From assembly GCA_043753995.1 (NCBI GenBank), contig JAYUVP010000304.1, forward strand, positions 348 through 64,347: 64,000 nucleotides of DNA, read 5' to 3'. Below are positions 34,472-53,144 of this stretch, piece after piece. A model generated the notes under the pieces. It ran no database searches. It was not told the origin of the DNA and saw only the letters and a program-made list of their open reading frames with translations. The stretch is from Fibrobacterota bacterium. Its GTDB lineage: Bacteria > Fibrobacterota > Fibrobacteria > UBA11236. The position numbers and the translations under genes were made by a program. Position 1 is the stretch's first letter. Every line of letters starts with the position of its first letter.

Positions 34472-34647
34472 AGAATGCGAAGGGTGTTAAGGCTTGTCGT
34501 CTGTAAACCAGGCATCGCGATACGCACCTTTTGGAGGCGGCATTTGCTGTGGCCGGTCCGTGGTAGAAAGGAGTCCGGTCCTCTTATCGATTTCCAAGTG
34601 CGGCCGTCTGCAGACCAAGCGGCAATCGCGCTCGTGCTGTCGGCCAA

Positions 34648-35544: not shown

Positions 35545-35553
35545 TTCTCCAAT

Positions 35554-39144: not shown

Positions 39145-39743
39145 TAGGGTTTTATCCGGTCATCATGGGTGACGGGTTCGTCGGATTCATTCATCAAGAC
39201 ATACAAGGTGGTTCCGACGGCGGCGCTAAGGCCAATACCACCCGCCGTCCACCAAATCCAATTCGAAGACTTCTTCTTTGTTCCTTTTGCGGTCTTGGTT
39301 CCTGCGGCTGTTTCATTGCCCACGACATCATGGCCCTGAACATATTCCTGGTGCTTCAGGTGGTTTAGTTTCACGCTCTTGAAAATGGCGTCAACATTGT
39401 CGCTAATATAGAGATCGACCAATTCAATGGACGGTTTCAACTTCAAGAGTTGAATCATGTAGCTCTCAGCTTTCAGCCTTGTGGCTGAATCTGAGGCATA
39501 TATCACGCTGAGGTATTTGAAAACGAAGATGCTGTCTTCGCGGGTTTTCGGGGCGAATCTTGCCCGCCATTCCTCCAAGGCAAGCGTTGCTTGCTGGAAA
39601 TCGCCTTCAAAGAATGCGCTGTTGATTGTGTCTCTATCCAGCGATCCATTGGATTTGAACCCGAATTCCGCATTTGCGGCGGGAGCGAGTAGGCAAAAGC
39701 CAACTAGCAGGGCGAGCTTGAAAAATGGGGCCATCAGGGGCAA
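39144..39743 (-). CDS. Hypothetical secreted/membrane protein coupled to the Ig-like gene
   Basis: Signal peptide, helical TPR-like core and C-terminal TM (WIWWTAGGIGLSAAVG). Its stop overlaps the next start. Confidence 0.65.
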   Translation of the reverse strand: MPLMAPFFKLALLVGFCLLAPAANAEFGFKSNGSLDRDTINSAFFEGDFQQATLALEEWRARFAPKTREDSIFVFKYLSVIYASDSATRLKAESYMIQLLKLKPSIELVDLYISDNVDAIFKSVKLNHLKHQEYVQGHDVVGNETAAGTKTAKGTKKKSSNWIWWTAGGIGLSAAVGTTLYVLMNESDEPVTHDDRIKP

Positions 39744-39906
39744 AAGCTACTTTTTCCATGGTTCGCCCTATGGCGGGGAAGCGGCTGGATGGCATTGCGA
39801 ATGCCGGTTACACTTCACCGATTTGAATCGTCCAAGCGCGTACTTTTATGGTTCTAATGTGATTTACTGGCCTTTCAAGTAGACCGATGAACAAAAACAA
39901 ACTTCG

Positions 39907-42354
39907 ATGACCTCATACCTCAAACCCAGTGATCTATCCGGCGGTGACCTCTTGGGTTTGGGGAAACCCGATTTCCCATCAGGGCAAGCGCCTTCTGATA
40001 TTTTCACCAAGCCGAAGAGCGGCGGCGGCCTAGGTGGTGGTGGCAGTCTAGCCGGTCAACGTGCCCGCGACGATGCGAAGAAAACGCAAGAAGCGAAAGA
40101 TTGGAATGAAGCGACGGCGGGTATCGACCCGCCTCCTCAGCAAGCGACGCGGTCTTCAGGTATAAAGCCTCGCCTAGCCCGCGTGCGCTTTCTCGGCAAA
40201 GATCATCGAGTCGGCGATATGGTAGGGGTAGCCTGCGATACCTTAGACGGAGCAACGGCCCAAGGCGTCGTGTTCACCGTACTTGGCAAAGACGCCAAGG
40301 GTGAGTGGGCCGACCGTGATAGGGTGACCGGCCAAAAGGCATCCCAAGGCAGCGGGGCCGAAATGCTGCTCAATAAGCCCTATGACCAAGGCGATAATAC
40401 TCCCATCACCTTCAAGGTGAAAGCCACCCACCAGGGGGCCGAAACCGTTGAAAGCGCACCCATCACCGCCGAACCCGAAGAAGATTTCGACGGCATTCTG
40501 TATTACTCGCCAAAGCGTGAGGCCTATCTCTTGCTCGAATCGCAAGACGAGGCGTTGCCCTTTCTCGAAAAGATGCAGCAAATGCACGACTTGAATGAGG
40601 CTCGCCTTTCGGCCTGGCGGGAACCTGACTTGCAAAAGCGCAATGTATGGCTTGAAGAGGTAGAGAAGAAAACCGATGCCATGTTCGGCGGCAAGGCCAA
40701 TGTCAAAGCCGACAAGGCCTTTGAAGAATTGATTCAGGTTCAGGGTAATAAGGCTTGGGGCAAGAGCCATGAATGGGCTTATCTACCTGACGAACAAAGT
40801 CAAAAAGGGCGCTGGGTCGAGAAGAAGGCCCCTGAGGTCGTCAAGAAGCTTGAGAAGGTGCGTCAGAAGGTCATCAAGCAAAGCAATAAGCGAAGCCAGG
40901 CGCGATATGCCGAGCAAAAGCAAAAGGGGCAACAACAAAGTCAGAATCAAGCCAAGAAAAACGAATCCGATGACAGCAAGGCTCCTATCTGGAAAGGCAG
41001 CCTCAAAGCTCAACTCTTCGAAAAAGAGATCGAACCTTACAAGTACTGGGAATGGGCGGCGTATCACAAGAAGAAAGATTTTCTGAAAAAGGCCGACGGC
41101 AGCGATAACCCGTATTTCGATTTCAGTGGCGAAGCCGCCGTCATGCGTTTTATTGCGGGTTGGAGCGGCCCCGAAATTGATTTCAAGCCGCATAAGGGCA
41201 CCCTCACCCTTGGGGCATCGGGTGCTGTTTCATTCGCGGTTCGTGAGGGCAAGCTCTCGGGCAGCGTGAGTTGGCCTTCTGAAAAAGGCGTGAATATGCT
41301 GGGCTTTCTCGGTGAGATCAAGCATAAAGAAAGCTTCATCGAAAAAGGGCGTGGCGTTTTCATGCGCCTGCATTTGTCGGGTGTGGCCTCTTATTTCGAA
41401 GGCGTGTCGATCAAGGGCGCATTGGCTTTTCCCAAGATCGACTTCTCAAAGGCGAACGTGAAGAAAGAGGACAAGGGAAGCGATGCTACGGCCAGCAAGC
41501 GCAAGAACGAAGTGGGCGCGAAGGCCAGTATCCACGGGCTGGTAGGCGCTCAAGCCAAGGTCGAGGGGTCTTTGGCCGTGCAATGGCACATGGCAGGTGC
41601 AAGCAAGTTCGATACCTTGGCGGAGGTGAAAGGCGAGGCCGCAGGTACCTCCGGATTTGCAGCCAAGTTTGAAATGGAGATCGCTTACTCGAATGGCAAG
41701 TTCATTTTCAAGGCTTCGGCTGGTTTGGCCAAGGGTCTGGGTGGTGAGGGCGGCTATTCCTATGAAGTGGGTTTTGACGAAGGGGTTGTGCTCATTGGCT
41801 ATTTGCTTGATAGCGTGAATTGGCATTACATCAAGGCCATTCAGATAGAGGCATTCAACGCCTACACCGATTACACTTTTGCCATGATGGTCGAGGGTGT
41901 GGATGCGGTGAAAGAGAATGCCACGGATGCTGTCGCCAGAGTCGAGAATTTTACCGGGTGGTTTAGTAAGGAAGCTACTCGAAAAATGACATCGATCAAG
42001 TCGTACATACGCAGTTTTGCCGACAAGGTGCACCTTATGCGCCGTTCATCACCCGAGGCCTTAGGACGTGCCTTGAATGTGCTCATGCGCACCCGCGAGG
42101 ATGATGACTTCGAACACATCCTGTATATCCTCAAGTTTGCCCAAAGTGATCACAAGCTGCGGTGGATCGTGCGCGAGATACCCCAGGTGGCATTGCCGCC
42201 GGAAACGGCTCCGAACTATGAGTCAGAGAAAGAGCGGTTGTATCAGGAGGGGAAGAAGATGTTGTTTGTGTTCGGTATGGGTGACGGAACCCCGAAGGCA
42301 AAACCAAATGAAAACTACCTGTCAAAGCTACAAGTGATTCTGGGGGCTCCATGA
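39907..42354 (+). CDS. Putative antibacterial toxin/effector (815 aa)
   Basis: No signal peptide; Gly/Ala-rich beta region (GASGAVSF, GLVGAQAKVEG, AGLAKGLGGEG); ATGA overlap with a MORN/YwqK-type gene. The toxin call is inference. Confidence 0.45.
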   Translation: MTSYLKPSDLSGGDLLGLGKPDFPSGQAPSDIFTKPKSGGGLGGGGSLAGQRARDDAKKTQEAKDWNEATAGIDPPPQQATRSSGIKPRLARVRFLGKDHRVGDMVGVACDTLDGATAQGVVFTVLGKDAKGEWADRDRVTGQKASQGSGAEMLLNKPYDQGDNTPITFKVKATHQGAETVESAPITAEPEEDFDGILYYSPKREAYLLLESQDEALPFLEKMQQMHDLNEARLSAWREPDLQKRNVWLEEVEKKTDAMFGGKANVKADKAFEELIQVQGNKAWGKSHEWAYLPDEQSQKGRWVEKKAPEVVKKLEKVRQKVIKQSNKRSQARYAEQKQKGQQQSQNQAKKNESDDSKAPIWKGSLKAQLFEKEIEPYKYWEWAAYHKKKDFLKKADGSDNPYFDFSGEAAVMRFIAGWSGPEIDFKPHKGTLTLGASGAVSFAVREGKLSGSVSWPSEKGVNMLGFLGEIKHKESFIEKGRGVFMRLHLSGVASYFEGVSIKGALAFPKIDFSKANVKKEDKGSDATASKRKNEVGAKASIHGLVGAQAKVEGSLAVQWHMAGASKFDTLAEVKGEAAGTSGFAAKFEMEIAYSNGKFIFKASAGLAKGLGGEGGYSYEVGFDEGVVLIGYLLDSVNWHYIKAIQIEAFNAYTDYTFAMMVEGVDAVKENATDAVARVENFTGWFSKEATRKMTSIKSYIRSFADKVHLMRRSSPEALGRALNVLMRTREDDDFEHILYILKFAQSDHKLRWIVREIPQVALPPETAPNYESEKERLYQEGKKMLFVFGMGDGTPKAKPNENYLSKLQVILGAP

Positions 42355-43106
42355 AATGGGTAGGACTCATACTGGCGATGACGGCCATAAGCTGTTTCCC
42401 TGCTGGAAAGAAATATCCGAACGAATGCGAGAAGCGCAGGTTTTCTCGGCACAATGGAAAACCGACGGAAATTGTGACCACCTGCATTTACGAAGCCAAA
42501 TTTGTGACGGAATACTATAAGGGCAAGAAAAACGGCAACCAGGTTGCCTTTGTCAACGGCGTGAAACGGTCAGAGACCCATTTTTTAAACGACAAAGAGC
42601 ACGGTCTAGTTCAAATCTTCGACAGCCTCGGCAATGTGACCGGCATCGAGCATTTTCACAACGGCAAGCAGGTGGGCGAAATACGACGATGGCACCGCCC
42701 CGATCAGTTGAGCGAGGTTATTCAATACGACAGCTTGGGCCGCAAAAATGGCTTGTGGCAGGCCTGGTGGCCAGATGGCAAACTGATCCAGGAGTCGCAC
42801 TATGTCGCCAACATTTGCACCCTAACCACTGAGTACTACCGCAATGGAAGAAAGCGCTATTACGAGCGCTTGCCACTAAAGGAATCAACAGGGATTATGT
42901 CTGAAAAGCTCATCGATGCCGAAAGCTGGTCTTGGTCGGGTAAGTCGATTGCGAAAGTGGTTTCTGGCACCGGCGTCCTCATTACCTTGCCTCAAAACTT
43001 TGAGGATAGCGCAACCCCGTGGGTGGCCTATCGTGCCGACTATAAAGACAGCATCGTCATTAAACTCACCGAACTCGACTCGGTCACCATTCAGAAATAC
43101 AAGTAA
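42351..43106 (+). CDS. MORN-variant repeat (YwqK antitoxin-like) lipoprotein, putative immunity protein
   Basis: Lipobox-like AISC; repeats KKNG, KEHG, KQVG and RKNGLWQAWWPDGKL. Confidence 0.75.
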   Translation: MKWVGLILAMTAISCFPAGKKYPNECEKRRFSRHNGKPTEIVTTCIYEAKFVTEYYKGKKNGNQVAFVNGVKRSETHFLNDKEHGLVQIFDSLGNVTGIEHFHNGKQVGEIRRWHRPDQLSEVIQYDSLGRKNGLWQAWWPDGKLIQESHYVANICTLTTEYYRNGRKRYYERLPLKESTGIMSEKLIDAESWSWSGKSIAKVVSGTGVLITLPQNFEDSATPWVAYRADYKDSIVIKLTELDSVTIQKYK

Positions 43107-43288
43107 CTCATGCGAAATCTTCTATTCATCCTCTCCCCGTTGCGCGGGGACGGCACCCGGTAGGCGCTTCATTACGTTTGCCGGGTGCCAACAAATTGAA
43201 GCGAACCTAAAGCCGCCTTATCGCCGTGATCAGTCGTTGACTATGTCTTGATGGTTCTGCGTAGAACCCCGTTTTCGTCCGGTGAAGG

Positions 43289-44083
43289 TCAGCGGATGGC
43301 AATAATCGTATCTAAAACAGTATCGATTTTTCCTTCGTCCGTCAGGCGGTTGCCCGTTCCTCTGAGCTTCAAAGTATCGGGTAACGTCTCGCCTTCATTA
43401 AGGATTTCATATTTGAAGCCGTAGCAAGTATTCGCGGTGGAATCACAACTCCCAGCATTGTCTCCATAAAGATCAATGAGTGTTGTTTGTGGCGGCGACT
43501 CCAAGGACGTGAGCTTAATACCCGAAATAATTTCTCCAAAGTGTAGGCTGTTGAATTCCGTGCGCAGGAAAATCCTGCCCTTGGTATCATGGGTGATTCG
43601 GATGCCCTCGGGTGATTTGCCATACTCCCCAAACTCGCCCAGATCAGGAATGAAGCGAATATCCGCGCGCTTGCTTCCTACGATAGCAGCGCTCAGCGTC
43701 GGCGAGCAAGCGTGGCACTCACTCCGATCTGAATTTTCGATGATAAATACGGTGCTAGAATCACTCAGCTTTTGTTCCAGCAAGATCCGTGAATAAACCG
43801 TACCCTCGATCCTTTTCAAAGGATTGTCCGCCGCCGGAGTCCAGGCTGTATGCGGTGAACCGCAACCTGAATAAGCCGTATCGCTTCCGATGCAAACATG
43901 AAGCGGTGCGCCATGGGAGTGTTTAATCAGCACATCGACGGCGAGCGGCACTGATGGCGAGTTGGGTGGTACCGGCTTCGGCTCCCGGCATTGGGTCACC
44001 GCCATGAAAAGGGCCAGTGAAAACGCTAGGCCAAGGATCGCAGGTTTCGACTTTTGCCGATTGAATATCATCTGATTGTCCAT
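43289..44083 (-). CDS. Hypothetical exported protein/lipoprotein
   Basis: 264-aa ORF; hydrophobic N-terminus ending VTQC; several Cys pairs (CHAC). Family not recognised. Confidence 0.6.
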   Translation of the reverse strand: MDNQMIFNRQKSKPAILGLAFSLALFMAVTQCREPKPVPPNSPSVPLAVDVLIKHSHGAPLHVCIGSDTAYSGCGSPHTAWTPAADNPLKRIEGTVYSRILLEQKLSDSSTVFIIENSDRSECHACSPTLSAAIVGSKRADIRFIPDLGEFGEYGKSPEGIRITHDTKGRIFLRTEFNSLHFGEIISGIKLTSLESPPQTTLIDLYGDNAGSCDSTANTCYGFKYEILNEGETLPDTLKLRGTGNRLTDEGKIDTVLDTIIAIR

Positions 44084-44097
44084 TGCCGAGAGTCGCC

Positions 44098-44496
44098 CTA
44101 CCGGGCGGCTTTTTTATTTGCGGGCTTTTTGCTGGGTGCTTTCGCCTCGCGTCTGCCCTGGCCCGTATGAGCCGTATAGCCTTCGATCAGCTTGAGAAAG
44201 GCCCGCTGTTCGTTCGACGGCAGCTTGGCAAAAATTTCCTGTATCCTCGCCATGCGGCTATTGCCGTGAAAGAGCCGATTCGGTTCGGTCTTTAGAGGTT
44301 CACCTATGCCGAGCAATTGATTGGGGGTAACGCCAAGGATCTTGCCGATCTCAATGAGCTTTTGAATCGAAGGGTAAGCTACTCCTTGCTCATAGCGGGT
44401 TATGAGTTGTTGAACCACGCCCAAGGCCTCGGCCATTTGGACTTGGGTTAAGCCCTTGGCTTGCCGTAGCTTGCGAATGTTTGCTCCGAGTTCCAC
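44098..44496 (-). CDS. XRE-family HTH repressor of the element
   Basis: IRKLRQAKGLTQVQMAEALGVVQQLITRYEQG; divergent from the primase operon. Confidence 0.9.
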   Translation of the reverse strand: MELGANIRKLRQAKGLTQVQMAEALGVVQQLITRYEQGVAYPSIQKLIEIGKILGVTPNQLLGIGEPLKTEPNRLFHGNSRMARIQEIFAKLPSNEQRAFLKLIEGYTAHTGQGRREAKAPSKKPANKKAAR

Positions 44497-44535
44497 GAAG
44501 CAAAAGGTAGGGTGGGGTTTCGTGGGGCCTTCCGA

Positions 44536-44556
44536 AATACTATCCTAAGTAGTATT
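44536..44556. promoter_or_regulatory. Inverted-repeat operator between xre and the primase operon
   Basis: AATACTA-N7-TAGTATT in the AT-rich intergenic gap. Confidence 0.55.
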
Positions 44557-44603
44557 ATGATCTATCTTAAAAAACTTACGATCACCCCTTGACACCCCTC
44601 CCG

Positions 44604-44969
44604 ATGAACCCACCCACAGGCACCCCCCAGACCCCCGGCGAGCCCCGCCCCAAGGACGACCTGCTGGTCTTGATTGCCGATCTCCACTTGGGGGCCTTCC
44701 TCATGTGCAAGGGCGTGCCCTTCAAAGGCCTGCAATTCGACGTGCGGGGCCGCGCAACCCTCATGTTCGAGGGCCGCGAAGCCATCCGGCTTCGAGCGGC
44801 CTATCACCAGGATGAAGTCAGCGTTCACCTTCCCAAGTTCAAAGGGGCCTACAACGCCCTGCGTGACTTGCTCTGTGCAAAACCCGAAGATACCCGTAAC
44901 CCCGAAGGTACCCATGCCCATACCCGAAGCCCTCTTGCAGAAGGTCAAGGCCGAAACCAATCTGCTTGA
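44604..44969 (+). CDS. Small hypothetical protein, possibly DUF5659-like DNA-binding protein
   Basis: DLHLGAFLMCKG...LMFEG...YHQDEVSV...YNALRDLL pattern; first gene of the primase operon (ORF from TTG 44589). Confidence 0.5.
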   Translation: MNPPTGTPQTPGEPRPKDDLLVLIADLHLGAFLMCKGVPFKGLQFDVRGRATLMFEGREAIRLRAAYHQDEVSVHLPKFKGAYNALRDLLCAKPEDTRNPEGTHAHTRSPLAEGQGRNQSA

Positions 44970-47643
44970 AATCGCCCGCTCTTTCGGTCTTAGCTTAACC
45001 CCCAAGGGCGATGACCACTTCACCCGCTGCCCCTTCCATCACGACGACACGCCGTCACTCTCGCTCAATGCCAAAAAGGGACTCTTCCATTGCTTCGGCT
45101 GCGGGGCCAAGGGCAATGCCATACAGTTCGTGCAGAAAATGGAAGGGCTGACTTTCCCCGAGGCTTTCAAGAAGGTGGCGGGTAATCGTGCCACACCCGA
45201 AGCCGCCACACTCGTGAGCCCAATGCCCGCAAGTCCCCTAGCCGCATCTGCCTCAAGGCTCATCACCCAAGCCCTCTCCCGCATGCGTCTTTGCCTCGAA
45301 GAAACGCCCAAGGTGCTCGAATACCTCACGCAAACGAGGGGCCTTGCCTTCTTGCTCAACCGGCAAAGCCGTGAGGCTGTCGGCGCGGGCTTTTGCCCCG
45401 AAGATTTCGGCATACGGCTGGATGCCAGGGCCAAGAAAGAATTGACCGCCGCCGGGCTTCTGACGCCCGAAGGCTTTCCGCATTTCGCGGGCTGCGTGGT
45501 CTTTCCGCTTCGCGATGTTAACGGGGAGGTTACCGGCCTTTACGGCCGCAAGATTGCGGGCGACGGCCACTTCTACCAGAAGGGCGAGCGGCGGGGCTTG
45601 TTTGCCTTGCATGGCGGCGGAGGCAGTGACAGCAACGGCAGCAATGGCGGGCTCTTCATCGCCGAATCGGTGATCGATGCGCTCAGCTTGCATCAAATGG
45701 GCGCTTCATCGGTGTTGGCCTTGCATGGTGTTAACGGCTTCACGCCCGCGCATGAGGCTTATATCAAGGCTCGCGCTCAAGATGGCCTTGGCTTATACCT
45801 CGTGCTCGATGGCGACCGGGCGGGCCGTGAAGCCTCGGTCAAACTCGCCGAGCGCATCAAGGCCATGGGACTTTTGGCGCATATCCTCGAAATGCCCGAA
45901 GGAAAAGATCCCAACAGTTTTCTTTTAGCCGCACAAGCCGCCAGCCCACGCACTTTGAAAGACTTGCAGTCCCTTACAGGTTACCCCAAGCCGCACGCGC
46001 CCGCCATAAGCCTGCGCCGCGACGGTGATAGCTTCATCGCCCTTACGCCCCTGCGCCGCTATGTCATCACCGGCCTTACCGCCCATGGTTTCGACCGCCT
46101 CCGGGTCACCCTCAAATGCATTTGCCTCAAGAGCCCCGGCATATTCCATATCGACAGTCTCGATCTCTATGCGGCCCGTGCCCGCGCCTCTTTTGCCGAA
46201 GACGCCGCCGCCGAGTTGAAGCATAAAGAAGCCGACATCGCCGCCGAACTCAAGACCTTAATTCCCTTGCTCGAAGAAGCCCGCTTAAGCCTTGCGAACA
46301 GCACGCAAGAGGCGGCAGTGCCCACCATGAGCGAAGCGGAAAAGGCCGAGGCCTTGGCGGCCTTGAAGTCGCCGACCTTGATAGCCGATCTCATCAAGAA
46401 TTTCGAGGCTATGGGGCTTGTGAGCGATGAGAAAGCCAAGCTCCTCGGCTATCTCGGCACGGTGTCGCGCCTGCTCGAAATGCCCTTGGGCATGCTCATC
46501 ATTTCACGTTCGGGCGCGGGCAAGACGGCTTTGCAAGATGCCATTTGCGCCTTGGTGCCCGGCGAGCACGTGATCAAATACACCCGCCTCACGGGCCAAG
46601 CCCTCTTCTATAAGGAGCGCGACGGACTCAAGTACAAAGTCTTAGCCATCGAAGAAGAAGACGGCATGAGCGCCGCGAAATATTCGATACGCACCCTCGC
46701 CAGCTCGCAGCGGCTCACCGTGGCCACCACCCGAAGCGATCCCAAAACCGGCAAGCTCAAGACCGATGAATACTTGGTCGAAGGCCCGGTCTTCATCCTC
46801 ATCGCCACCACCAACCCCGACGCGCTGGACGCCGAGACGCGCAGCCGCTTCATCATCTTGACCATAGACGAGAGCCCCGAGCAGACGCGGCGCATCATGG
46901 AATCGCGCAAGCTGAGCTACACCTTGGAAGGCAGGCGCAAGCATCGGGCGGGAAGAAAAACGCTGTCGCATTACCACAACATGCAGCGCTTGCTTAAGCC
47001 CATCGAGGTGGTGAACCCTTTTACGCCTTATATCGATTACCCCTTCGACCGCCTGCAAATGCGCCGCGAGTTCGGCAAGTACATGGCCCTCATCAATGCG
47101 ATAACCCTTTTGCATCAGCATCAGCGCGAGGTGAAGCATGATCTTGATGACGGCAGCAATACGCCCTATATCGAAACCACGGTCGAAGACATCGCCTTGG
47201 CCAATGAGCTTGTGCTTGAGTTCTTTCCTAATTCGCTCGATGAATTAGCCCCGCATACCCGCAATCTCGCAGCCGAGGTGATGAAGCTCATCGAGAAGAG
47301 CGGCGGCGACACTCGCTTCACCCGCAAGGCCTTGCGTGACTTCTGCGGCTGGACGGATTGGAGCATACGCCAAGGGTTAGAACAGCTTGTGATCCTTGGT
47401 TATATCATCAAGACCATGGCGCAAAACGGCCTTTGCAATACTTATGAACTGGTGATAGACCCTTGCGGAGAAGACCGCAGCTCACTCTTTCTCACTTCAC
47501 CCGACGAATTGCGCAAACGCCTGGAAGCGGCTAGGGCTGAGGCCAGGACGGCGGGGAAGGTGGCCACTCTATCGCCGAACCTTGTGCCGATGAAAAACGG
47601 CGGCGAGGCGGCTAAAAGAAAAACCACTGGGGGCCGGTCATGA
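44914..47643 (+). CDS. CHC2 zinc-finger/TOPRIM DNA primase fused to a P-loop ATPase (putative primase-helicase)
   Basis: CPFHHDDTPS...CFGC zinc finger; TOPRIM (AESVIDAL, LDGDRAG); Walker A SRSGAGKT; Walker B-like LAIEE. ATG 44914 has a GAAGG RBS. Confidence 0.88.
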   Translation: MPIPEALLQKVKAETNLLEIARSFGLSLTPKGDDHFTRCPFHHDDTPSLSLNAKKGLFHCFGCGAKGNAIQFVQKMEGLTFPEAFKKVAGNRATPEAATLVSPMPASPLAASASRLITQALSRMRLCLEETPKVLEYLTQTRGLAFLLNRQSREAVGAGFCPEDFGIRLDARAKKELTAAGLLTPEGFPHFAGCVVFPLRDVNGEVTGLYGRKIAGDGHFYQKGERRGLFALHGGGGSDSNGSNGGLFIAESVIDALSLHQMGASSVLALHGVNGFTPAHEAYIKARAQDGLGLYLVLDGDRAGREASVKLAERIKAMGLLAHILEMPEGKDPNSFLLAAQAASPRTLKDLQSLTGYPKPHAPAISLRRDGDSFIALTPLRRYVITGLTAHGFDRLRVTLKCICLKSPGIFHIDSLDLYAARARASFAEDAAAELKHKEADIAAELKTLIPLLEEARLSLANSTQEAAVPTMSEAEKAEALAALKSPTLIADLIKNFEAMGLVSDEKAKLLGYLGTVSRLLEMPLGMLIISRSGAGKTALQDAICALVPGEHVIKYTRLTGQALFYKERDGLKYKVLAIEEEDGMSAAKYSIRTLASSQRLTVATTRSDPKTGKLKTDEYLVEGPVFILIATTNPDALDAETRSRFIILTIDESPEQTRRIMESRKLSYTLEGRRKHRAGRKTLSHYHNMQRLLKPIEVVNPFTPYIDYPFDRLQMRREFGKYMALINAITLLHQHQREVKHDLDDGSNTPYIETTVEDIALANELVLEFFPNSLDELAPHTRNLAAEVMKLIEKSGGDTRFTRKALRDFCGWTDWSIRQGLEQLVILGYIIKTMAQNGLCNTYELVIDPCGEDRSSLFLTSPDELRKRLEAARAEARTAGKVATLSPNLVPMKNGGEAAKRKTTGGRS

Positions 47644-47661
47644 CGGCGGCAGGCTTGGCCC

Positions 47662-47767
47662 ACCCTGTGAACCCTGAGGCACCCTGTGAGACCCTGTGTG
47701 AAAAGAAGTCACAGGGTTTAAACCCTTTTGTTTCCGGGCCTTACGGTCGCTTTTACACCACCCTGCG
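47662..47767 (+). repeat. Iteron-like ACCCTG(TG) array downstream of the primase
   Basis: ACCCTG at 47662, 47671, 47681 and 47691; inverted CACAGGGT at 47710-47717; further ACCCTG at 47760. Confidence 0.7.
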
Positions 47768-47817
47768 GGCTTTTCGGTAAAAGGTGGGTGGGGGTGCGAA
47801 AAACGAGGGTAAAGCCG

Positions 47818-48819
47818 ATGCAAAGCGGCATGAATGCGACCCTGCCCCCGGCTTTTACCGGCCTTTCGCTTCGCTTTCGTCTCTGCCTTGAGCGCTATCG
47901 TGAGCACTTGGAGGCCAAGGGTCATTCATCGCATACCGTGCGCAGCTACACCCACACGGCCAAAGACGTACTAGGGTATTTGGCTGGCTTTCATATCGAG
48001 ACCTTACGAGAGGTCTTGCCGCAACACCTGCACGCCTATCAAAACAGCCTCATGGAAACAAGGTCAAGCGGCAAGCCCCGCAGCCTACGCACCGTAACCT
48101 TGCGGTTAACCGAGGTGCGGGCCTTCTTCGCCTACCTGCATGCCCAAGGCGAAATCCTGCTCAACTCGTCTTTAAGCCTGGTCCTGCCCAAGGCGCAAAA
48201 ACGCTTGCCGCGTTTCGTGCCGCCGGTTAACGACATGGCAAGCCTCATCGAAGCGCCGATTTTGGACGGGCCTTTGGGCCTAAGAGATCGGGCCATATTG
48301 GAATTGCTTTACTCATGCGGATTAAGAAGCAGTGAGGCCCGCGCCATGGAGGTCGCCGATCTCGACATGCGGAGCCGGGTTCTCTTCGTGAGAGGCAAGG
48401 GCGGCAAAGATGCCCTGGTGCCTTTCGGCAAGACGGCGGCCAAGGCCTTGGTCAATTACTTGCACCATGGCCGCCCCAAGCTCACTGGCAAAGGCGGTGA
48501 TGCACAGCCTTACCTCTTTCTCAGCAAGAGTGGCCGCAGCATCACTTCACAAAATTTGCTCGACATGGTGCGGCGTCATGCGAAGGCTTTGAACCTGCAA
48601 GGCAATATTTCGCCGCATGGTTTGCGGCATGCGTGCGCCACCCACCTTTTGCAAAACGGCGCCGATATACGGCACATTCAAAAGCTCTTGCGGCATAGCA
48701 GTCTCAACACCACTCAGATTTACACCCGCCTTTGCATCGACGATTTGAAAACAGCGCAAGAGCGCTACCACCCGCGTGAAAAAATCGCTGCAAAAACCGA
48801 TGCCGAAATCAGCGCATGA
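47818..48819 (+). CDS. Tyrosine recombinase 1 (XerC/XerD-like)
   Basis: RDRAILELLYSCGLRSSE, RGKGGK, HGLRH and LLRHSSLNTTQIY give a complete R-K-H-R-H-Y set (ORF from 47728). Confidence 0.93.
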   Translation: MQSGMNATLPPAFTGLSLRFRLCLERYREHLEAKGHSSHTVRSYTHTAKDVLGYLAGFHIETLREVLPQHLHAYQNSLMETRSSGKPRSLRTVTLRLTEVRAFFAYLHAQGEILLNSSLSLVLPKAQKRLPRFVPPVNDMASLIEAPILDGPLGLRDRAILELLYSCGLRSSEARAMEVADLDMRSRVLFVRGKGGKDALVPFGKTAAKALVNYLHHGRPKLTGKGGDAQPYLFLSKSGRSITSQNLLDMVRRHAKALNLQGNISPHGLRHACATHLLQNGADIRHIQKLLRHSSLNTTQIYTRLCIDDLKTAQERYHPREKIAAKTDAEISA

Positions 48820-49831
48820 GAATGCCCGCCTTGGTGAACTCGGCGGTTTTTTAGAAGGCTATCTCTTTTCTTTTAGCCGCGAAAGCCGCCAAGGTTTTTC
48901 GCTTTTGTCGCACCCGTCTTCGTCACAATCGTCTGCTAGGCTATCGCATGCGAAGAGCACGGCTTTGCACCTGCATTACACCTTGGGGCTCTTTCTTAAA
49001 AACATGCGGGCCATGGGCTGCGAAGCGCCGTCAGACATGCAGGCCGAGCACATCACGCGGTATTTCGCGGGCATGCGGAATAGGCGACCCGCCACCTTGG
49101 CTTATCATCGCTGGGCCATACAGGATTTCTTCGCGTGGCTTATTGAGCGGGGTTATTTGCTCATCAGCCCATGGCCGGAAAGTCTTGCACTCAAAACCCC
49201 GCCGCCGTATCCGCGCCTCATTTTACCGCCGCAAGAAATTCTCGGGCGGTTTGCGGCCGTCACGGGGGCCGCTGGTGATGACGATAGGAAGAGCGGCACG
49301 CCGCTGGCCCTAAGAGACCGCGCAATTCTGGAAATCGCCTACGGCCTGGGACTACGCATGAGCGAATTGTGCCGCTTGAATGTGGGCGATATTCGCGGCG
49401 ACCTGCTTTTCGTGCGGGGCAAGTTCGGCAAAGAGCGCATGATGCCGCTAGGGCTTTCGGCGTCTGAGTCACTTGCGCGTTACCTCGCCTTATCTCGCCC
49501 TATACTCAAGGCCCGTCAAAAAGCCGAGACGCAAGCCGCCGGGTATCCGTTGGAATCAAGCGACCCGCTTTTCCTTTCACGCTGCGGAACGCGGCTATTG
49601 CCCGGCGGTTATGAATGGCTCATGAAGCGGTGTCGCAAGGCCATGCCGGGGCGTTTCTCAATGCACGGTTTGCGGCACGCTTTCGCAACCCACATGCTTG
49701 AAGGCGGCGCACCCTTGCCGGTGATACAAGCCTTGCTCGGACACGAGAAAATGGAAACGACCTCACGCTATGCCCATGTAAGCGTGAAAGCGCTTCGAGA
49801 AGTTCTAGACCGGTGCCACCCAAGAGCGTAG
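48776..49831 (+). CDS. Tyrosine recombinase 2 (XerC/XerD-like)
   Basis: RDRAILEIAYGLGLRMSE, RGKFGK, HGLRH and LLGHEKMETTSRY give a complete catalytic set; overlaps the end of recombinase 1. Confidence 0.93.
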   Translation: MKKSLQKPMPKSAHENARLGELGGFLEGYLFSFSRESRQGFSLLSHPSSSQSSARLSHAKSTALHLHYTLGLFLKNMRAMGCEAPSDMQAEHITRYFAGMRNRRPATLAYHRWAIQDFFAWLIERGYLLISPWPESLALKTPPPYPRLILPPQEILGRFAAVTGAAGDDDRKSGTPLALRDRAILEIAYGLGLRMSELCRLNVGDIRGDLLFVRGKFGKERMMPLGLSASESLARYLALSRPILKARQKAETQAAGYPLESSDPLFLSRCGTRLLPGGYEWLMKRCRKAMPGRFSMHGLRHAFATHMLEGGAPLPVIQALLGHEKMETTSRYAHVSVKALREVLDRCHPRA

Positions 49832-50429
49832 GCGACCCGAGCGCGGGAATCATCACGTAAAATTCAGATTGACGCTGAATGCGTATCTGAGGGCGACGGT
49901 TTGCCACCTATTCCGAATATCTGAGCCAATGGTTGATGGGTTTCCGTTGCCCACTGGTTTTTTGAGGGTGAACACATACATACCGCTCAAGTGTTCGCGC
50001 AGATCTACCGCAATGCCAATTTCACCCATGCTGGTTTTGATGTTTTTGACAATTTCATGGATGCATGCCTTGTTTATCGCGATTATATCTGTCGTACACG
50101 TCACCATAAGTAGATCCTTTGTGACTTATCGTTACCATGCTTGCATTATGTTTCGAGCCAATCAAGTTGGCGGGGTCTTTCGCGCCTTTGCGGTGCTGTT
50201 AGGTTTCTCTTTGTCCTGACAGGCCAAGGCTTTGCATTTGATGCGAGGCCACGGCCAAACGGAGTTTGTCCCGCCGCCGCCTCGCTTGACATTCTTTGCG
50301 CCATCGCCTGCCATGGGTTCACATCACCGCAAGCACGCTTTGGCGGCTTTCATCAAATCCGCCAAAGCGTGCGCGTCATTGCCGGCGGGCCGCTCGCCCT
50401 TCCTGTTCGCTTCTGCTTCGAGGCGAGCT

Positions 50430-50506
50430 TTTACATAATGACGTTTACGCAAACCCTGTCGGGTGCGGCCGCACGGCGGCCTTCGCGTAAAGCGGCATTA
50501 TGCAAA
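50430..50506 (+). other. Composite recombination site A: two inverted dif-like sites (6-bp and 7-bp spacers)
   Basis: TTTACATAA-TGACGT-TTACGCAAA (50430-50453) ... TTCGCGTAA-AGCGGCA-TTATGCAAA (50482-50506). The function is inferred. Confidence 0.7.
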
Positions 50507-50616
50507 CCAGCCGGTTCCACATACGCCCGCTAGGGCGGGCTATGCCATGTCGCGGCGCGAAAGCCCCCTTTGCGCACCCCTGGTGGTTAGATTTCATCCA
50601 CTGTCACTCATCAAGG

Positions 50617-51279
50617 ATGAATTCGGATATGCTTCGATTTGGAAAATTTGTCGTGTTCTCAGGAATGATTTGCTTGCTTGCATTATCAGGTTGCAATGAC
50701 CCGAAATCAGCTTCAAAAGAAAATTTCAAAAAGGCTCTTCAAGTCTATTACGATGCCCACCCTTTGATTGTCACTCAAATTTGGCTGACGCTGCCGGTGA
50801 TTGAGGGCAGTTCGGCGTATAAAACGAATGAAGAATTTGTGACGTTTTTCGCCTCGGTCGGCTACTTGGAAGGCCGTGACACGGTTGCCGAAATTGATTC
50901 TGTCGGATATTTGGAAGGACACTTTGCGCGTGTCAATATCAAAATCAAGCGCCCCACAAAAGTTTGGCAATTGACCGAAGAGGGAAAAAAGAATTTCATA
51001 ACCACGTCAAACCCTTTGGTTGGTTCGGTAGGTGGTTTCAGATGGGCCGATGTTCAGGTTAAGGACGTGGAGTCGTTCACCGAACCGGCGGACATGATGG
51101 GCAAGCGTGTAAGCGAGGCAACCTATTCGATCACCCTTGTGAATGAAAAACCTTGGGTCAACCAAATCAAGGGGAAAAGGGGGTTCGCTGCCAACTTTAT
51201 GTACCTCGACCAAATTGGCGCTGCAAGAAAATCGAGTTTGGTTCTGACTTCGGACGGATGGGTTGACGCAAGGCAGTAA
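50617..51279 (+). CDS. Hypothetical lipoprotein
   Basis: Start ATG 50617 or 50629; lipobox LSGC followed by NDPKSASKENFKKAL. Lies between composite sites A and B. Confidence 0.7.
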   Translation: MNSDMLRFGKFVVFSGMICLLALSGCNDPKSASKENFKKALQVYYDAHPLIVTQIWLTLPVIEGSSAYKTNEEFVTFFASVGYLEGRDTVAEIDSVGYLEGHFARVNIKIKRPTKVWQLTEEGKKNFITTSNPLVGSVGGFRWADVQVKDVESFTEPADMMGKRVSEATYSITLVNEKPWVNQIKGKRGFAANFMYLDQIGAARKSSLVLTSDGWVDARQ

Positions 51280-51287
51280 ATCCAGGA

Positions 51288-51912
51288 CTTGGGCGTCCGC
51301 GTAGCGGAAACCCATTTCGGTACTCTTTTCCGCTGCCACCATCATTTTCAAATGGCTTCCCAAGCATTGAAATTCTGTGTTCATCGACCTTGGGCTTCCG
51401 CGCAGCGGAAGACCAAGGCCACAAGCAAGCACTAGGCCGCTACAGCGTGGCGGCGTCTCATGCGCGTGCGGGGTACGGCTCCACACGCGCCAGCCCGCAC
51501 CGCCGCCGTCATATACGGGTTACCCTCTCGTTTGGCCTTCCTCTCCCGCTGTCTCATGACTCGCCCGTGCCTCGACATTTGGTCCTTGCTTGCGACAGGA
51601 CTCGGGGATTAGGCCGCTCGCTTCGCGAGACGTCCTAACCCCCGAGTTCGTCGGAACGCCTCGTAGCATTGTCCACTCTCCAGGGAATAGGGTGGGTGGC
51701 GCGCTAGGCGACCCTAAGCCCCTTGGCGGCTTAATGCCCACAGGGCCGCCAAGGGGATTGCGGCAAGTTTGCATAATCACGACTTAAACGAACCCCGTCA
51801 ACCGGGGTTTGAGTAAGTCGGATTATGTAAAGCCGCCCGCGAAGCGTGCGGCGGACTTGGCGTTGGGTCGCCAGCCCTTGGGGTGCGGGGAGCGCGGAGC
51901 ACACCAAGGGCT
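51288..51912. other. Hairpin-dense non-coding region
   Basis: Stems at 51388-51418, 51600-51647, ~51720-51756 and 51873-51912; a 22-bp direct repeat at 51288 and 51389; no convincing ORF. Confidence 0.65.
51768..51831 (-). other. Composite recombination site B: inverted copy of site A architecture
   Basis: Minus strand reads TTTACATAA-TCCGAC-TTACTCAAA-CCCC...GGGG-TTCGTTTAA-GTCGTGA-TTATGCAAA. Confidence 0.7.
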
Positions 51913-52096
51913 TGACGCAGTATGCGCGGTGCCGTCATGAATGCCAAAGTGGCGGACGGTCGCCGGGCTTGCCCGGCGGTGGTCTGCCACCATGCTAGGC
52001 ACGGCGCAGGATGCGGCAAAGCGCGGGGGGATGGGAGGAGGACAGGGAATCTCCTGGTTATCTTTCGTGTTACCTCGTTATACCCGGAGTCTTTAC

Positions 52097-52549
52097 ATGG
52101 ATTGGCGCAGCGTCATGCGTATTGTCTATGCTGCATCGCTGGCTTTCGTTGGCTTGTTCTTCCTTGCCGTCATGCTGGCGCAAATCGAGGTGGCTAAACA
52201 AATTGCGAAGCTCCCGGTACTCTCATTCAGCATGATGTCCTTGCTTTGGCTATCGCCGGGCGTGTTGGCCGTGCTGTCGGCTTGGCGTCTATGGTCCGCT
52301 AAAGGGGCGGCGCTCGTCTTTTGGGCTTCGGTGAGTCCGGCTTATGTCCTTGCACGCTTTTGGGCGCATCAGCGCCCCGCATGGCTTGGCGGCATGGTTC
52401 ACGGCGAATGGGGGTTGGCTTCGGCCATGAGCGGCGGCCCCGACAAGATGCTGGCGGCAGTGATATGGCTTGCCATGCTCATCCTAGGGCTTGGGGGCTT
52501 ATTCGCCGTTGCCGCCTTCTTTTTCCCTAAAGGCAATCCTAAGCCCTAG
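52097..52549 (+). CDS. Hypothetical integral membrane protein (~4 TM)
   Basis: ATG 52097 with GGAG RBS (ORF from 51941); hydrophobic helices. Confidence 0.6.
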   Translation: MDWRSVMRIVYAASLAFVGLFFLAVMLAQIEVAKQIAKLPVLSFSMMSLLWLSPGVLAVLSAWRLWSAKGAALVFWASVSPAYVLARFWAHQRPAWLGGMVHGEWGLASAMSGGPDKMLAAVIWLAMLILGLGGLFAVAAFFFPKGNPKP

Positions 52550-52595
52550 AGTGGGGGGTCAAAAAAAGAGCCTTATACGATTTTTTGGACCTCTG

Positions 52596-52634
52596 TAGGT
52601 GATAATGGAAATCATCACCTATGTGCTTTCGGGA
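52596..52634 (+). repeat. attR: symmetric tyrosine-recombinase core plus the 30-bp direct repeat
   Basis: TAGGTGATAA-TGGAAA-TCATCACCTA (9/10 inverted arms); 52605-52634 is identical to 33917-33946. Confidence 0.85.
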
Positions 52635-53144
52635 GCTCTGGAGCATCGCGACTCGCTGGGCAATGGCGGTCTCCTGAAACGCGATACCGTGCAACGCATG
52701 CGCGCGGGCACGGGCATACGCCATAGCGAAGCCAATCCCGATTCCAATAAGCCCTTGCATCTGTTTCAAATCTGGATTTTGCCCCAGGTCAAGAATCTTT
52801 CGCCGGCCTATGAAGATCGGTATTTCGATCCGCAGGGCGCGCTTGGCAAGTGGCAATTGCTGGCTTCGAAGGATGGCCGCGAAGGCAGTTTAGATATCGC
52901 TCAGGATGCGAGCTTATGGCGGGTGTTTTTGCGGCCAGGCGAAGAGGTATCGCTCACGTTACCTGAGGGCGAAGGCCACGCCTTTCTACAATTGGCGAGC
53001 GGCGAAGCCGAGGTCAGCACGGTGGGCGAAGGAGAGGCGGCGGCTACACTCAAGGGGAGTGATGCCGCCGCGATGAGCCAAGTGAGGAGCGTGAAGGTGA
53101 AAGCACTGCAAGCCACCGAGGCCTTATTATTCGGGTTGAGATAG
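52605..53144 (+). pseudogene. Displaced 3' fragment of the pirin gene (lacks codons 1-61)
   Basis: Begins MEIITYVLSG and is highly similar to residues 62-245 of 33734-34471; upstream sequence is unrelated to pirin. Confidence 0.88.

Follow-up and report, generated by a model that had tools for sequence, protein, structure and literature searches.

In phage P4 (alpha protein) and the PICI/SaPI islands (Pri-Rep), primase and hexameric helicase are joined in one protein, iterons lie near the gene and the integrative element is controlled by a repressor. P4 alpha uses an SF3 helicase and the PICIs other Rep helicases, and both are packaged by helper phages. More than one tandem tyrosine recombinase gene on a mobile element is known from Tn554 (TnpA/TnpB/TnpC), the RIT trios and GInt. 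The 'Prim-Hel' architecture was named in the legend of Fig. 7 of Kawano, Aravind & Storz 2007 (PMC1891008), beside a Cro/cI-type HTH regulator, SymE, and Rhs or haemagglutinin genes; the paper offers a neighbourhood cartoon only and says nothing of a recombinase, of att sites, or of the boundaries and life cycle of an element. The tycheposons of Prochlorococcus target tRNA genes and use one integrase of their own lineage, and their excision and enrichment in vesicles have been shown (Hackl et al., bioRxiv 10.1101/2020.12.28.424599). 'C-terminal displacement' of Rhs proteins was described by Jackson et al. 2009 (PMC2935791), and in the recombinase-linked immunity arrays of Zhang et al. 2012 (PMC3482391) XerC/D genes were merely noted beside polyimmunity loci.

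Here we describe an 18,688-bp element inserted within the pirin gene of an uncultured Fibrobacterota bacterium, in a window (the whole stretch of DNA analysed) of 64,000 nt. As a whole, positions 33917-52634 are best explained as a mobile element, neither conjugative nor viral, in its integrated state, a reading that we consider probable. The anatomy of the insertion, with a 30-bp direct repeat at both ends, is directly visible:

33917-33946, plus strand: attL core ATGGAAATCATCACCTATGTGCTTTCGGGA, the 30-nt exact repeat, pirin codons 62-71
33918-33923: proposed 6-bp attL overlap TGGAAA, within the 30-nt repeat
33924-33933: attL right arm TCATCACCTA, within the 30-nt repeat
33947-34471, plus strand: replacement 3' part of pirin, element-borne
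52557-52591, no strand: second palindrome GGTCAAAAAAA-N13-TTTTTTGGACC, 4 bp left of the left arm of the core
52596-52634, plus strand: attR
52596-52605: attR left arm TAGGTGATAA, element-borne
52606-52611: attR overlap TGGAAA
52612-52621: attR right arm TCATCACCTA
52635-53144, plus strand: original 3' part of pirin, pushed downstream and in frame with the core

The two exact copies of the repeat (33917-33946 and 52605-52634) open a pirin duplication with an abrupt onset at 33917/52605, which after the identical 30-nt core continues at 88% identity across 300 nt. An intact 245-aa pirin ORF (33734-34471) is formed by the host 5' part and the element-borne 3' part; the displaced 3' part is in frame with the core, so that excision would rebuild the pirin gene. 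The window is a metagenome assembly in which the path through the pirin repeat depends on the assembler, and the contigs, which at k=31 are blind to a 30-bp core, held neither an attP nor an empty attB for this element. No tRNA genes occur in the window.

The same insertion point is observed in a distant relative, an element of another Fibrobacterota MAG (L001), whose primase and pirin are 62% and 51% identical to those of the window and whose truncated pirin copy, as in the window, has aa 62 as its first residue (three independent assemblies). A further contig (L087) begins exactly at the att core. The direct repeats at a specific target, with the same target in relatives, are those expected of an IME or genomic island. 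The sites themselves are also conserved: the sequence just left of attR is conserved between the window element and L001 and forms an inverted repeat with pirin codons, and the element-side arm tracks the host codons (TAGGTGATAA/TCATCACCTA in the window, ATAGGTGAGTA/TACTGTCCTAT in L001). Rebuilt from the two ends, attP would be an inverted-repeat core of 10+6+10 bp adjoining the second conserved palindrome, which L001 keeps and which is a candidate accessory site. Identifiable att and accessory-looking sites had been announced by an earlier sequence-only reading of this DNA.

The interior of the element holds a replication and recombination module with its regulator:

44098-44496, minus strand: Xre/cI-type HTH regulator, divergent from the primase operon
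44536-44556, no strand: perfect palindrome AATACTA-N7-TAGTATT in the xre/primase intergenic region, read from the sequence, a candidate operator
44604-44969, plus strand: small ORF, 121 aa from ATG, overlapping the primase start
44914-47643, plus strand: primase-helicase, 909 aa (Pfam, Foldseek, AlphaFold, family alignment)
45918-45932, plus strand: 15-nt motif TTTTCTTTTAGCCGC, copy 1, within the primase gene, at the same relative place in relatives
47608-47622, minus strand: the same motif, copy 2, inverted, in the last codons of the primase gene
47662-47716, no strand: iteron cluster, direct repeats CCCTGTGA, CCCTGAGG, CCCTGTGA, CCCTGTGT and inverted TCACAGGG
47818-48819, plus strand: YR1 (YR-a), Xer-like tyrosine recombinase with SAM-like and catalytic domains, ORF open from 47728
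48776-49831, plus strand: YR2 (YR-b), second Xer-like tyrosine recombinase, alternative start ATG 48800
48866-48880, plus strand: the same motif, copy 3, in the 5' part of YR2

The earlier reading had placed the primase and recombinase ORFs exactly (44914-49831) and had recognised in the first a CHC2-TOPRIM-P-loop fusion, which the searches bear out and sharpen. Pfam found Zn_ribbon_DnaG (9e-25) and Toprim_2 (3.5e-16) in the 909-aa protein, its Walker A motif is SRSGAGKT, and its primase half matched structure 2au3 in Foldseek (7e-16). The AlphaFold model (pLDDT 88.5) matched MCM helicases at 3e-8 to 6e-8. The product is confidently predicted from these models to fold as a DnaG-type primase (CHC2 zinc ribbon and TOPRIM) fused to an MCM-like AAA+ helicase, the latter being the P-loop part; at the C-terminus, a domain of helices and strands resembles a winged helix. 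In a 15-sequence alignment C39, H42, C60, C63, E251, D255 and D301 of the primase are invariant and D299 nearly so; G536-K537 of Walker A and E581 are invariant across the primase-helicase family. PF27228 is precomputed on the C-terminal half of the protein and on nearly all its homologues; this helicase domain takes its name from an ORF of a Methanothermobacter plasmid. With a CHC2 and TOPRIM N-terminus, a PF27228 C-terminus and a divergent Cro/cI-type HTH gene upstream, the locus shares the protein and neighbour of Prim-Hel, and enterobacterial relatives of the element match the PMC1891008 picture gene for gene; unlike it, the window element has no SymE, sits in pirin and carries two recombinases. 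Like P4 alpha and the PICI proteins, the window protein combines primase and helicase, is probably origin-binding and has iterons near its gene, but its helicase is of the MCM-like type, and nothing points to a helper.

The surrounding short features are likewise conserved. Homologues of xre are present in 118 related loci, and the small ORF is 44-46% identical to ORFs at the equivalent place in 11 of them. Eight of nine relatives inspected have iterons in the interval from the primase gene to YR-a, and the window cluster is a candidate replication origin. L001 and another relative (L007) have the motif TTTTCTTTTAGCCGC at +29 of their own YR2.

Both recombinases matched Phage_integrase (YR1 3e-43, YR2 6e-32) and, aligned to XerD (1a0p/5dcf), retain R, K, H-x-x-R, H and Y, the full catalytic sets that had been claimed for two overlapping genes; the ORFs overlap by 44 nt from GTG 48776 or by 20 nt from ATG 48800. 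YR2 is the more divergent, with 31% identity to YR1, and YR1 clusters with the single recombinase of one-recombinase relatives. Every catalytic position of YR-a is invariant in 40 distinct sequences, and those of YR-b are invariant in 41 sequences except the first His (39/41). Neither protein reached the XerC or XerD equivalog cut-offs (335/330 bits), YR1 scoring 240 bits and YR2 159-161, and both fall short of the 265 bits required by the integron integrase (IntI) model, at 95 and 63 bits. A third recombinase, as in a RIT trio, is lacking: the window has two ORFs and each of 168 related modules at most two. The GmtY and GmtZ models matched weakly, no TnpC-like gene was recognised in the element with the models run, none of which is TnpC-specific, and no excisionase or directionality factor was recognised there. 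The element resembles Tn554, RIT, GInt and the gamma-mobile-trio in its tandem tyrosine recombinase genes and differs in having only two of them, together with a replication module and a gene-restoring att design.

Two catalytically complete Xer-type paralogues and a core site of arms of about 10-11 bp with a 6-bp overlap recall XerC/XerD, and the pair is kept in 45 related modules, in support of the Xer-like pair first proposed. However, YR1 and YR2 score far below the equivalog cut-offs, their genes lie side by side on a mobile element, and pirin rather than dif provides the site. The two arms of attP, TAGGTGATAA and TAGGTGATGA (reverse complement), differ very little and are not XerC- or XerD-specific; the proposal that the pair acts on an asymmetric site in the manner of XerC/D finds no support here. 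Judged from such near-symmetric arms, nothing in the site would seem to call for two different proteins, and one-recombinase relatives manage with a single enzyme, so that a need for YR2 is not apparent. Control by FtsK is not expected.

From these parts we infer a life cycle. The recombinases would join a circular form to host pirin at a simple attP of two 10-bp inverted arms and a 6-bp overlap, with the crossover in the conserved pirin motif HGHRD-MEI(I/L)(T/S)Y; pirin would stay intact because the element carries its own codons 62-245, the old 3' part being left as a fragment at the other end. A putative Xre-type repressor faces the presumed operon, in which the small ORF is followed by the genes of the primase::MCM-like helicase, YR1 and YR2. 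Upon expression of this operon, recombinase-driven exchange between the two 30-bp cores would release the element as a circle, which the primase-helicase would replicate from the iterons directly downstream of its own gene. Self-replication is suggested by the primase::MCM fusion, the family-wide iterons, the twofold depth and the 28 circular or tandem contigs described below. YR1 would be the ancestral integrase of the family and YR2 a catalytically intact paralogue, probably coupled to it in translation; most likely YR2 joins YR1 in a mixed complex, where it may serve the left half of attB, which matches poorly, or else the palindrome beside the core.

About 170 related loci were found, in which the link between primase and recombinase is near universal (two recombinases in 45, one in 86). 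Unit sizes range from 6.5 to 18.7 kb, and near-identical tandem arrays of units occur in isolate genomes. Most units are inserted in Rhs or CdiA toxin genes, to which they bring a new tip and an immunity gene; the link to Rhs and polymorphic toxin loci that the sequence-only reading named is real. Insertions in toxin genes also occur in 60 complete E. coli genomes. The Rhs relatives sit at the core/tip boundary with displaced tips left downstream, as in Rhs C-terminal displacement, whereas the window element lies in pirin and has no toxin gene as target. The family is very large and essentially undescribed, and its toxin-gene members swap toxic tips. As had been supposed of the sites and life cycle of such modules, the literature yielded no description of the element class or of its sites, only the architecture having been named (PMC1891008).

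Could such an element be basically a small plasmid, its recombinases resolving multimers in the style of Xer/cer or Cre/lox and its chromosomal copy an occasional co-integrate? The name of the helicase domain and the Leptospira plasmids, where the module adjoins parAB, speak for it, as do 28 of 164 related contigs, 6.8-10 kb long, that close on themselves, although tandem arrays predict closed contigs equally well. The depth of the element contig (15.4 and 14.7 against 6.9-9.1 over flanks of more than 25 kb, in two runs) agrees with it too; this roughly twofold depth could come from a collapsed tandem copy, from a free circle or from a second host, between which k=31 contigs do not distinguish. 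Against it, precise integration within a gene, with the matching 3' part of that gene carried along, is seen in every long-context case and bespeaks a dedicated integration design, and all 206 E. coli matches are chromosomal, with none on a plasmid. We hold the plasmid reading unlikely.

The rest of the element consists of cargo and a variable right end:

34648-35544, minus strand: ThuA-family protein (Pfam)
35554-39144, minus strand: 1196-aa Ig-like protein (Big_13, Big_9, He_PIG)
39144-39743, minus strand: 199-aa protein, no family match
39907-42354, plus strand: 815-aa orphan protein
42351-43106, plus strand: 251-aa protein, its start overlapping the stop of the 815-aa gene
43289-44083, minus strand: 264-aa ORF, no match in any library
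49832-52556, no strand: variable right-end region with ORFs of 84 aa (minus), 259 aa (plus) and 202 aa (plus)

The Ig-like protein is 40% identical to a 1103-aa protein of L001, and the 199-aa protein 51% identical to 203-aa proteins of L001 and of a further relative (L088). A search of 5.8 billion proteins gave one homologue (46% identity) of the 815-aa protein. The 251-aa protein has a weak MORN-repeat match (29.1 bits), just below the cut-off of 29.6. None of the three right-end ORFs was matched; the 202-aa one appears hydrophobic by eye. No relaxase, T4SS, capsid or terminase was recognisable between the att sites in the larger ORFs (Pfam, NCBIfam, PHROGs, PADLOC; the ThuA and Ig-like proteins with Pfam only), in agreement with the earlier claim; seven ORFs there are matchless, so that a hidden transfer function is possible. 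As regards a mobilisable element, no relaxase family was found (Pfam, NCBIfam, PHROGs), and an oriT is not recognisable from sequence alone.

An element without transfer genes of its own, laid out as repressor, primase-helicase and integrase, resembles PICIs and P4, and might be a phage satellite that is silenced by Xre, induced by a helper phage, replicated by its primase-helicase and packaged in helper capsids; spread as a satellite had indeed been suggested. PHROGs matches, however, were limited to primase, integrase and regulator families, with no capsid, terminase, size-redirection or interference genes (terS, capsid, sid/psu/delta, ppi). No full-length homologue of the primase-helicase occurs in 50,697 phage records, and its helicase domain was found in only 3 of 2.9 million IMG/VR contigs against at least 345 genome-collection and at least 316 metagenome-collection stretches. 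The range of unit sizes and the toxin tips that are the usual cargo of the family likewise count against a satellite, which we regard as quite improbable. Of the earlier interpretation, the integrative element with att sites, the Xer-like pair and the Rhs link remain, the asymmetric-site pair and the satellite route find no support, and spread by transformation or in vesicles would be speculative.

The mobile element preferred here has a parallel in the tycheposons, which are likewise small, carry cargo, use a site-specific tyrosine recombinase, duplicate part of their target gene and give tandem-repeat junctions; a primase/helicase module is optional in them, and their cargo type lacks conjugation and capsid genes. 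The window element differs in its protein-coding target, its DnaG::MCM fusion and its two recombinases, and is known only as a sequence; at most, by analogy, it might work like a tycheposon.

Has the island stopped moving, its recombinases serving, for example, the local rearrangement of cargo? In comparison with L001 the genes of the Ig-like and the 199-aa protein are inverted together, decayed E. coli copies exist, including a primase gene with an internal stop, and no excision junction was seen in the k=31 contigs, blind as they are to the 30-bp core. Yet the core genes are all intact, the att cores are identical across 30 nt and the element forms an unbranched 18.5-kb contig at twofold depth. 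Moreover, the host flank is confined to the two runs mentioned, whereas the element core is partly present in 14 other runs from wastewater, sludge, soil and fresh water, and unrelated samples without that flank contain close variants whose cargo differs; the wastewater variant lacks the ThuA-family gene and has positions 49832-50169 replaced. We give an immobilised remnant very little weight.

Paralogous pirin genes are common, but an ordinary pirin duplication unrelated to the module, with illusory att sites, is scarcely credible, since codons 1-61 are missing from the right copy, whose start coincides exactly with the onset of homology, and is contradicted by the truncation point shared with a relative whose pirin is only 51% identical and by the sequence left of attR, conserved in both elements, that forms an inverted repeat with the pirin codons. 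The 10-11 + 6 + 10-11 site design, with homology from the spacer on, recurs in a further relative (L142) and in an acidobacterial attP consensus. By eye, another relative (L081) has this design too.

The element occupies positions 33917-52634 of the window and lies inside a pirin gene, a truncated copy of which follows at its right-hand end. The two pirin copies share 30 identical nt (33917-33946 and 52605-52634), after which they stay 88% identical for 300 nt; left of this repeat they are not similar. Because the alignment begins so abruptly at the 30-nt repeat, we read the duplication as the signature of an element integrated within the gene and supplying a replacement 3' part. A tRNA gene as target was ruled out, as there is none in the window. 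The sequence-only reading had proposed an integrative element with identifiable att sites; this is well supported by the repeat pair, the pirin duplication and the same insertion point in a relative. We regard the finding of an integrated element with a defined att pair as real, and the element as probably self-replicating.

Features of the element and its pirin flanks in the window
33734-34471, intact pirin gene, beside a MarR gene
33917-33946, attL repeat; the interval between the att repeats is 18,688 bp
first genes of the interval, minus strand, ThuA, a 1196-aa Ig-like protein and a 199-aa protein
39907-43106, 815-aa orphan and overlapping 251-aa protein (weak MORN-repeat match), then a 264-aa ORF
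next, xre and a small ORF
44914-47643, primase-helicase, 909 aa
47662-47716, iteron cluster
47818-48819, tyrosine recombinase YR1
48776-49831, tyrosine recombinase YR2, then three unmatched ORFs
52557-52591, second palindrome
52596-52634, attR
52599-53144, pirin fragment lacking about the first 60 codons (Pfam)

As had been claimed, no transfer or packaging genes were recognisable within the att boundaries: conjugation, capsid and terminase families were absent from the larger ORFs between the att sites in Pfam, NCBIfam, PHROGs and PADLOC, with ThuA and the Ig-like protein scanned against Pfam only and some ORFs left unmatched. In PADLOC the cargo gave nothing except DnaG-like similarity, Rfam found no family in 33000-53500, and a promoter and terminator scan gave no excess over the shuffled expectation. 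For the 815-aa orphan, 5.8 billion proteins yielded a single homologue; its stop codon is overlapped by the start of the 251-aa gene, and the two may be a toxin and its immunity gene. A pair formed by a 199/203-aa protein and then an 1100-1200-aa Ig-like protein is inverted in the window (35554-39743) relative to L001:5103-9035, L001 being a pirin-targeting relative in another Fibrobacterota genome.

The same target is used at the locus of primase P0003, which is 62% identical to the window primase and is found on a Fibrobacterota MAG contig and also on ENA and JGI contigs. The gene order there is MarR, pirin, cargo (including a 1103-aa Ig-like protein and a 203-aa protein), xre, small ORF, primase, two recombinases and truncated pirin. 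As in the window, the truncated pirin begins at residue 62; the pirins themselves are only 51% identical. The element host is probably a Fibrobacterota bacterium, because every named AcrB homologue, at 59-71% identity, comes from that phylum. The idea that the pirin-targeting lineage had jumped between phyla was rejected, both hosts being apparently Fibrobacterota.

The circle site attP was rebuilt by joining the left side of attR to the right side of attL. This gave TAGGTGATAA-TGGAAA-TCATCACCTA for the window and ATAGGTGAGTA-TGGAAA-TACTGTCCTAT for L001, in both cases inverted arms flanking a 6-bp spacer, and the element-borne arm varies between the two in step with the host pirin codons. The layout recurs in the acidobacterial consensus of about 20 elements, GCGCGTTCATA-ACCTCG-TATGAACGCGA. 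Locus L142 has arms CCCGTTCTTA/AAGGAACGGG around ACGTCA, and its attL-attR homology again begins at the spacer; another related contig (L087) starts exactly at the att core. The left half of the empty site attB (GGCCATCGCGAT) is unlike the arms. About 65 nt left of attR are conserved between the window element and L001, the remainder of that region being unconserved. The second palindrome, GGTC-A7...T6-GGACC, stands 4 bp left of the left arm of the core and is conserved in L001; it was rejected as a terminator on account of this conservation, its A/T-rich stem and the lack of any called gene ending there. L001 additionally carries four tandem 16-bp repeats (CACTTTCATACATCCG; L001:17575-17640) and then further short repeats, located between a 13-nt motif and the attR core and with no counterpart in the window.

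Both recombinases have XerC/XerD as best models, with scores of 240 (YR1) and 160 bits (YR2) against cut-offs of about 330. Alignment to XerD bore out the claim of two Xer-like enzymes with full catalytic sets, as Arg, Lys, His-x-x-Arg, His and Tyr are kept in both. Across the family, 168 modules could be scored: two tandem recombinases are present in 45 and a single one in 86; in the other 37 none was called, in most cases owing to the end of the contig. By identity clustering, which is cruder than a true phylogeny, the first recombinase of the pairs (YR-a) clusters with the single recombinases, and the second (YR-b) forms separate groups. All catalytic positions are invariant in 40 distinct YR-a sequences, and likewise in 41 YR-b sequences save the first His (39 of 41). 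The YR-a and YR-b genes abut or overlap, which suggests coupled translation. From the grouping, the invariant catalytic residues and the gene abutment together, we conclude that the pair is an old, maintained set of two active enzymes rather than a decaying duplicate. It is plausible that YR1 and YR2 act jointly; the near-symmetric site gives no explanation for this, and a conserved pair of intact recombinases on such a site is a mechanistic puzzle.

The three ORFs of the module (primase-helicase, YR1 and YR2) lie at the positions originally reported. A fusion of CHC2, TOPRIM and P-loop domains had been read from the sequence, and Pfam confirmed a CHC2 zinc ribbon (9e-25) and a TOPRIM domain (3.5e-16) of DnaG type in the 909-aa protein, with the NCBIfam dnaG model covering residues 3-344. 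The C-terminal 500 residues had no match in the Pfam profile search; precomputed annotation of homologues lists PF27228, 'MTBMA_p00010_2nd'. Fold search was needed because a sequence search of the helicase half against PDB was empty. The AlphaFold model, built from 79 homologues, was confident (pLDDT 88.5). Its N half matches DnaG primases in PDB (2au3, 7e-16); outside the DnaG entries, MCM helicases score best (9gjw_4 at 3e-8, M. acidophilum MCM at 6e-8), ahead of other AAA+ motors, RuvB and ORC/Cdc6 among them. By exclusion, the MCM/AAA+ matches would belong to the C-terminal half, which we read in the model as a beta-rich domain, an AAA+ core and a winged-helix-like end. In the AAA+ core, Walker A (residues G536-K537) is invariant in homologue alignments, as is E581. 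The 'P-loop ATPase' is thus sharpened by the fold match to an MCM-like helicase.

Four direct copies and one inverted copy of CCCTG(T/A)G(A/G/T) occur between the primase stop codon and YR1. The same layout, with the unit (A/C)CCTTG(T/C)G, is found at the same place in L001, two further related loci and acidobacterial elements.

Iteron clusters (3-5 direct copies and one inverted)
47662-47716, window
L001:12904-12957
L007:9866-9940
L090:12624-12668

In P4 and SaPIs, origins are placed next to rep genes, and by this analogy the cluster is a likely candidate for the replication origin; replication of the element is a strong inference. Separately, the 15-nt motif TTTTCTTTTAGCCGC has three exact copies within 3 kb, in different reading frames and with no other exact copy in the window.

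Copies of the 15-nt motif
45918-45932, plus strand
47608-47622, minus strand
48866-48880, plus strand

A related motif, TTCTTT(T)AG(C/T)(C/T)GC, stands at corresponding positions in distant relatives; acidobacterial elements have it in addition behind a TATAAT box, some 120 nt upstream of the attP core, and directly ahead of the ribosome-binding site of the first recombinase. The 15-nt motif could serve in RNA pairing or as a protein-binding site.

In Logan contigs (k = 31 assemblies) of the two source runs, the element is one unbranched contig of 18,521 bp (34114-52634) with a depth of 15.4 and 14.7, and more than 25 kb of flanks have a depth of 6.9-9.1. A collapsed tandem copy, a free circle and a second host context would each be compatible with this doubling of depth; attP and attB are invisible in these contigs because the 30-bp core is shorter than k. 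A search for runs with the host but not the element found the host flank in the two source runs only, and parts of the element core are present in 14 others (wastewater, sludge, soil and fresh water). Wastewater runs X3-X6 contain a core variant, about 89-97% identical by contig, that runs into pirin at attR; the ThuA and Ig-like region is missing from it, and a 336-bp segment takes the place of the sequence directly after YR2 (window parts compared: 34164-38100, 42800-43460 and 49832-50169). These differences indicate that cargo turns over fast around a stable core.

Identical ends of 29-209 nt, marking circular or tandem-derived molecules, were present on 28 of 164 fetched contigs (6.8-10 kb), one of them from an isolate, Photorhabdus caribbeanensis.

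Contigs with identical ends
L024, L031, L035, L041, L063, L067, L093, L094, L104, L106, L107, L111-L114
L116, L117, L119, L121, L123, L130, L134, L137, L144, L145, L153, L159, L164

Tandem units 99.6-99.99% identical occur in isolate chromosomes of Photorhabdus asymbiotica, Xenorhabdus bakwenae, Pectobacterium and Fluviicoccus, and two- and three-unit arrays are found on metagenome contigs. Arrays of two-recombinase units are seen in L090:2821-22631 and in L127, whose three modules lie at 3031, 9980 and 16907; one array repeats every 11.9 kb and contains stretches of 100% and 95% identity, and the other consists of three 6.9-kb units that are 81-90% identical.

The engine of the element is the conserved module of a large uncharacterised family. 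A protein search with the primase-helicase returned 491 homologues; for the helicase half, 1.84 billion cluster representatives include 6,677 relatives at E <= 0.001, of which 1,343 reach E <= 1e-30. Scans found at least 345 stretches in genome collections and at least 316 in metagenome collections. The family is present in dozens of bacterial groups, among them Acidobacteriota, Desulfobacterota, Beta- and Gammaproteobacteria (including Xenorhabdus, Photorhabdus, Pectobacterium and Serratia), Planctomycetota, Verrucomicrobiota, Actinomycetota and Leptospira.

A link to Rhs and polymorphic toxin loci, proposed earlier, was borne out by units in Rhs genes of Xenorhabdus, Pectobacterium and acidobacteria and in Rhs arrays of E. 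coli. The Xenorhabdus unit begins inside a PAAR-Rhs gene, exactly at the DPLGL codons, and comprises an endonuclease tip, a SUKH immunity gene, SymE, xre, the primase-helicase and one recombinase, with an identical second unit after it; Pectobacterium has the same junction.

One-recombinase tandem units at Rhs DPxGL codons
L030:7604-15570, Xenorhabdus bakwenae
L081:8342-14881, Pectobacterium sp. PL152

At both loci the units are near-identical and bring a toxin tip and an immunity gene besides SymE, xre, the primase-helicase and the recombinase; they look like a site-specific route to Rhs tip replacement. Acidobacterial two-recombinase units of 7-7.5 kb have an attP core that overlaps the YERD codons of Rhs, and it is at this core that the coding sequence of their Rhs tip starts. 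A TpsA2/CdiA-like gene precedes the module on a P. aeruginosa megaplasmid, and on Leptospira plasmids of 63-70 kb (for example L. interrogans p6, NZ_CP043900.1, locus L086) the module lies between two genes annotated peptidase M23, the first of more than 1,700 codons, and directly before parA and parB. In E. coli the module is carried by 60 of 5,426 complete genomes, strain MP1 among them, with a median of four sites per genome; all lie on the chromosome, in vgrG-Rhs orphan arrays. A crude regular expression found the Rhs core-end motif in about 45% of loci.

We give an even chance to the reading that small integrative-replicative elements with this module form a very large class, as yet unnamed, which normally inserts at polymorphic-toxin core/tip boundaries and of which the window contains a two-recombinase form retargeted to pirin. 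Insertion points would then be Rhs DPxGL or YERD motifs and CdiA/TpsA, and probably other giant secreted proteins; each element would deliver a new tip and immunity gene and displace the old tip downstream, and this would supply the site-specific mechanism so far lacking for orphan toxin arrays and for the 'C-terminal displacement' of Rhs (Jackson et al. 2009, PMC2935791). The window machine would have a housekeeping-type target and other cargo, and the second recombinase may permit retargeting or control direction. If true, this class would explain the exchange and stacking of Rhs/CdiA tips and immunity genes, a question since 2009, and would add to bacteria a class of self-replicating elements, neither conjugative nor viral, that use an MCM-like helicase.

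A 'Prim-Hel' protein (DnaG primase and MCM-like helicase) beside cHTH and SymE, near Rhs/haemagglutinin genes, appears in a figure legend of Kawano, Aravind and Storz (2007, PMC1891008), and XerC/D genes beside polyimmunity loci were noted by Zhang et al. (2012, PMC3482391). In the literature searched we found no described class with known sites to which the module belongs, and no account of the sites or life cycle; coverage was incomplete, and the negative therefore amounts only to an absence of evidence. Papers on Bryopsidales chloroplasts and on TreX/Trx proved to be false leads. We rate the window element as a site-specific integrative element with a replication module, which falls outside XerCD/dif, RIT, integrons and the known satellites; Tycheposons and PICI/P4 are nearest to it in mode of working. 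Spread as a satellite, one of the routes initially suggested, is disfavoured by PHROGs, phage-record and IMG/VR scans. The window thus offers a clean, fully bounded example of an abundant family without name, defined sites or experiments, for which a minimal attP, attB, a candidate origin and two candidate accessory motifs are now defined, turning vague 'XerC next to Rhs' annotations into testable biochemistry.

One E. coli locus, L172 (QA-1986 630, NZ_CP101920.1 2527360-2567463), has the module inside a vgrG-Rhs orphan array, with short Rhs fragments at every unit boundary, ISEc1 insertions, one primase pseudogene and a recombinase named 'XerC' by PGAP.
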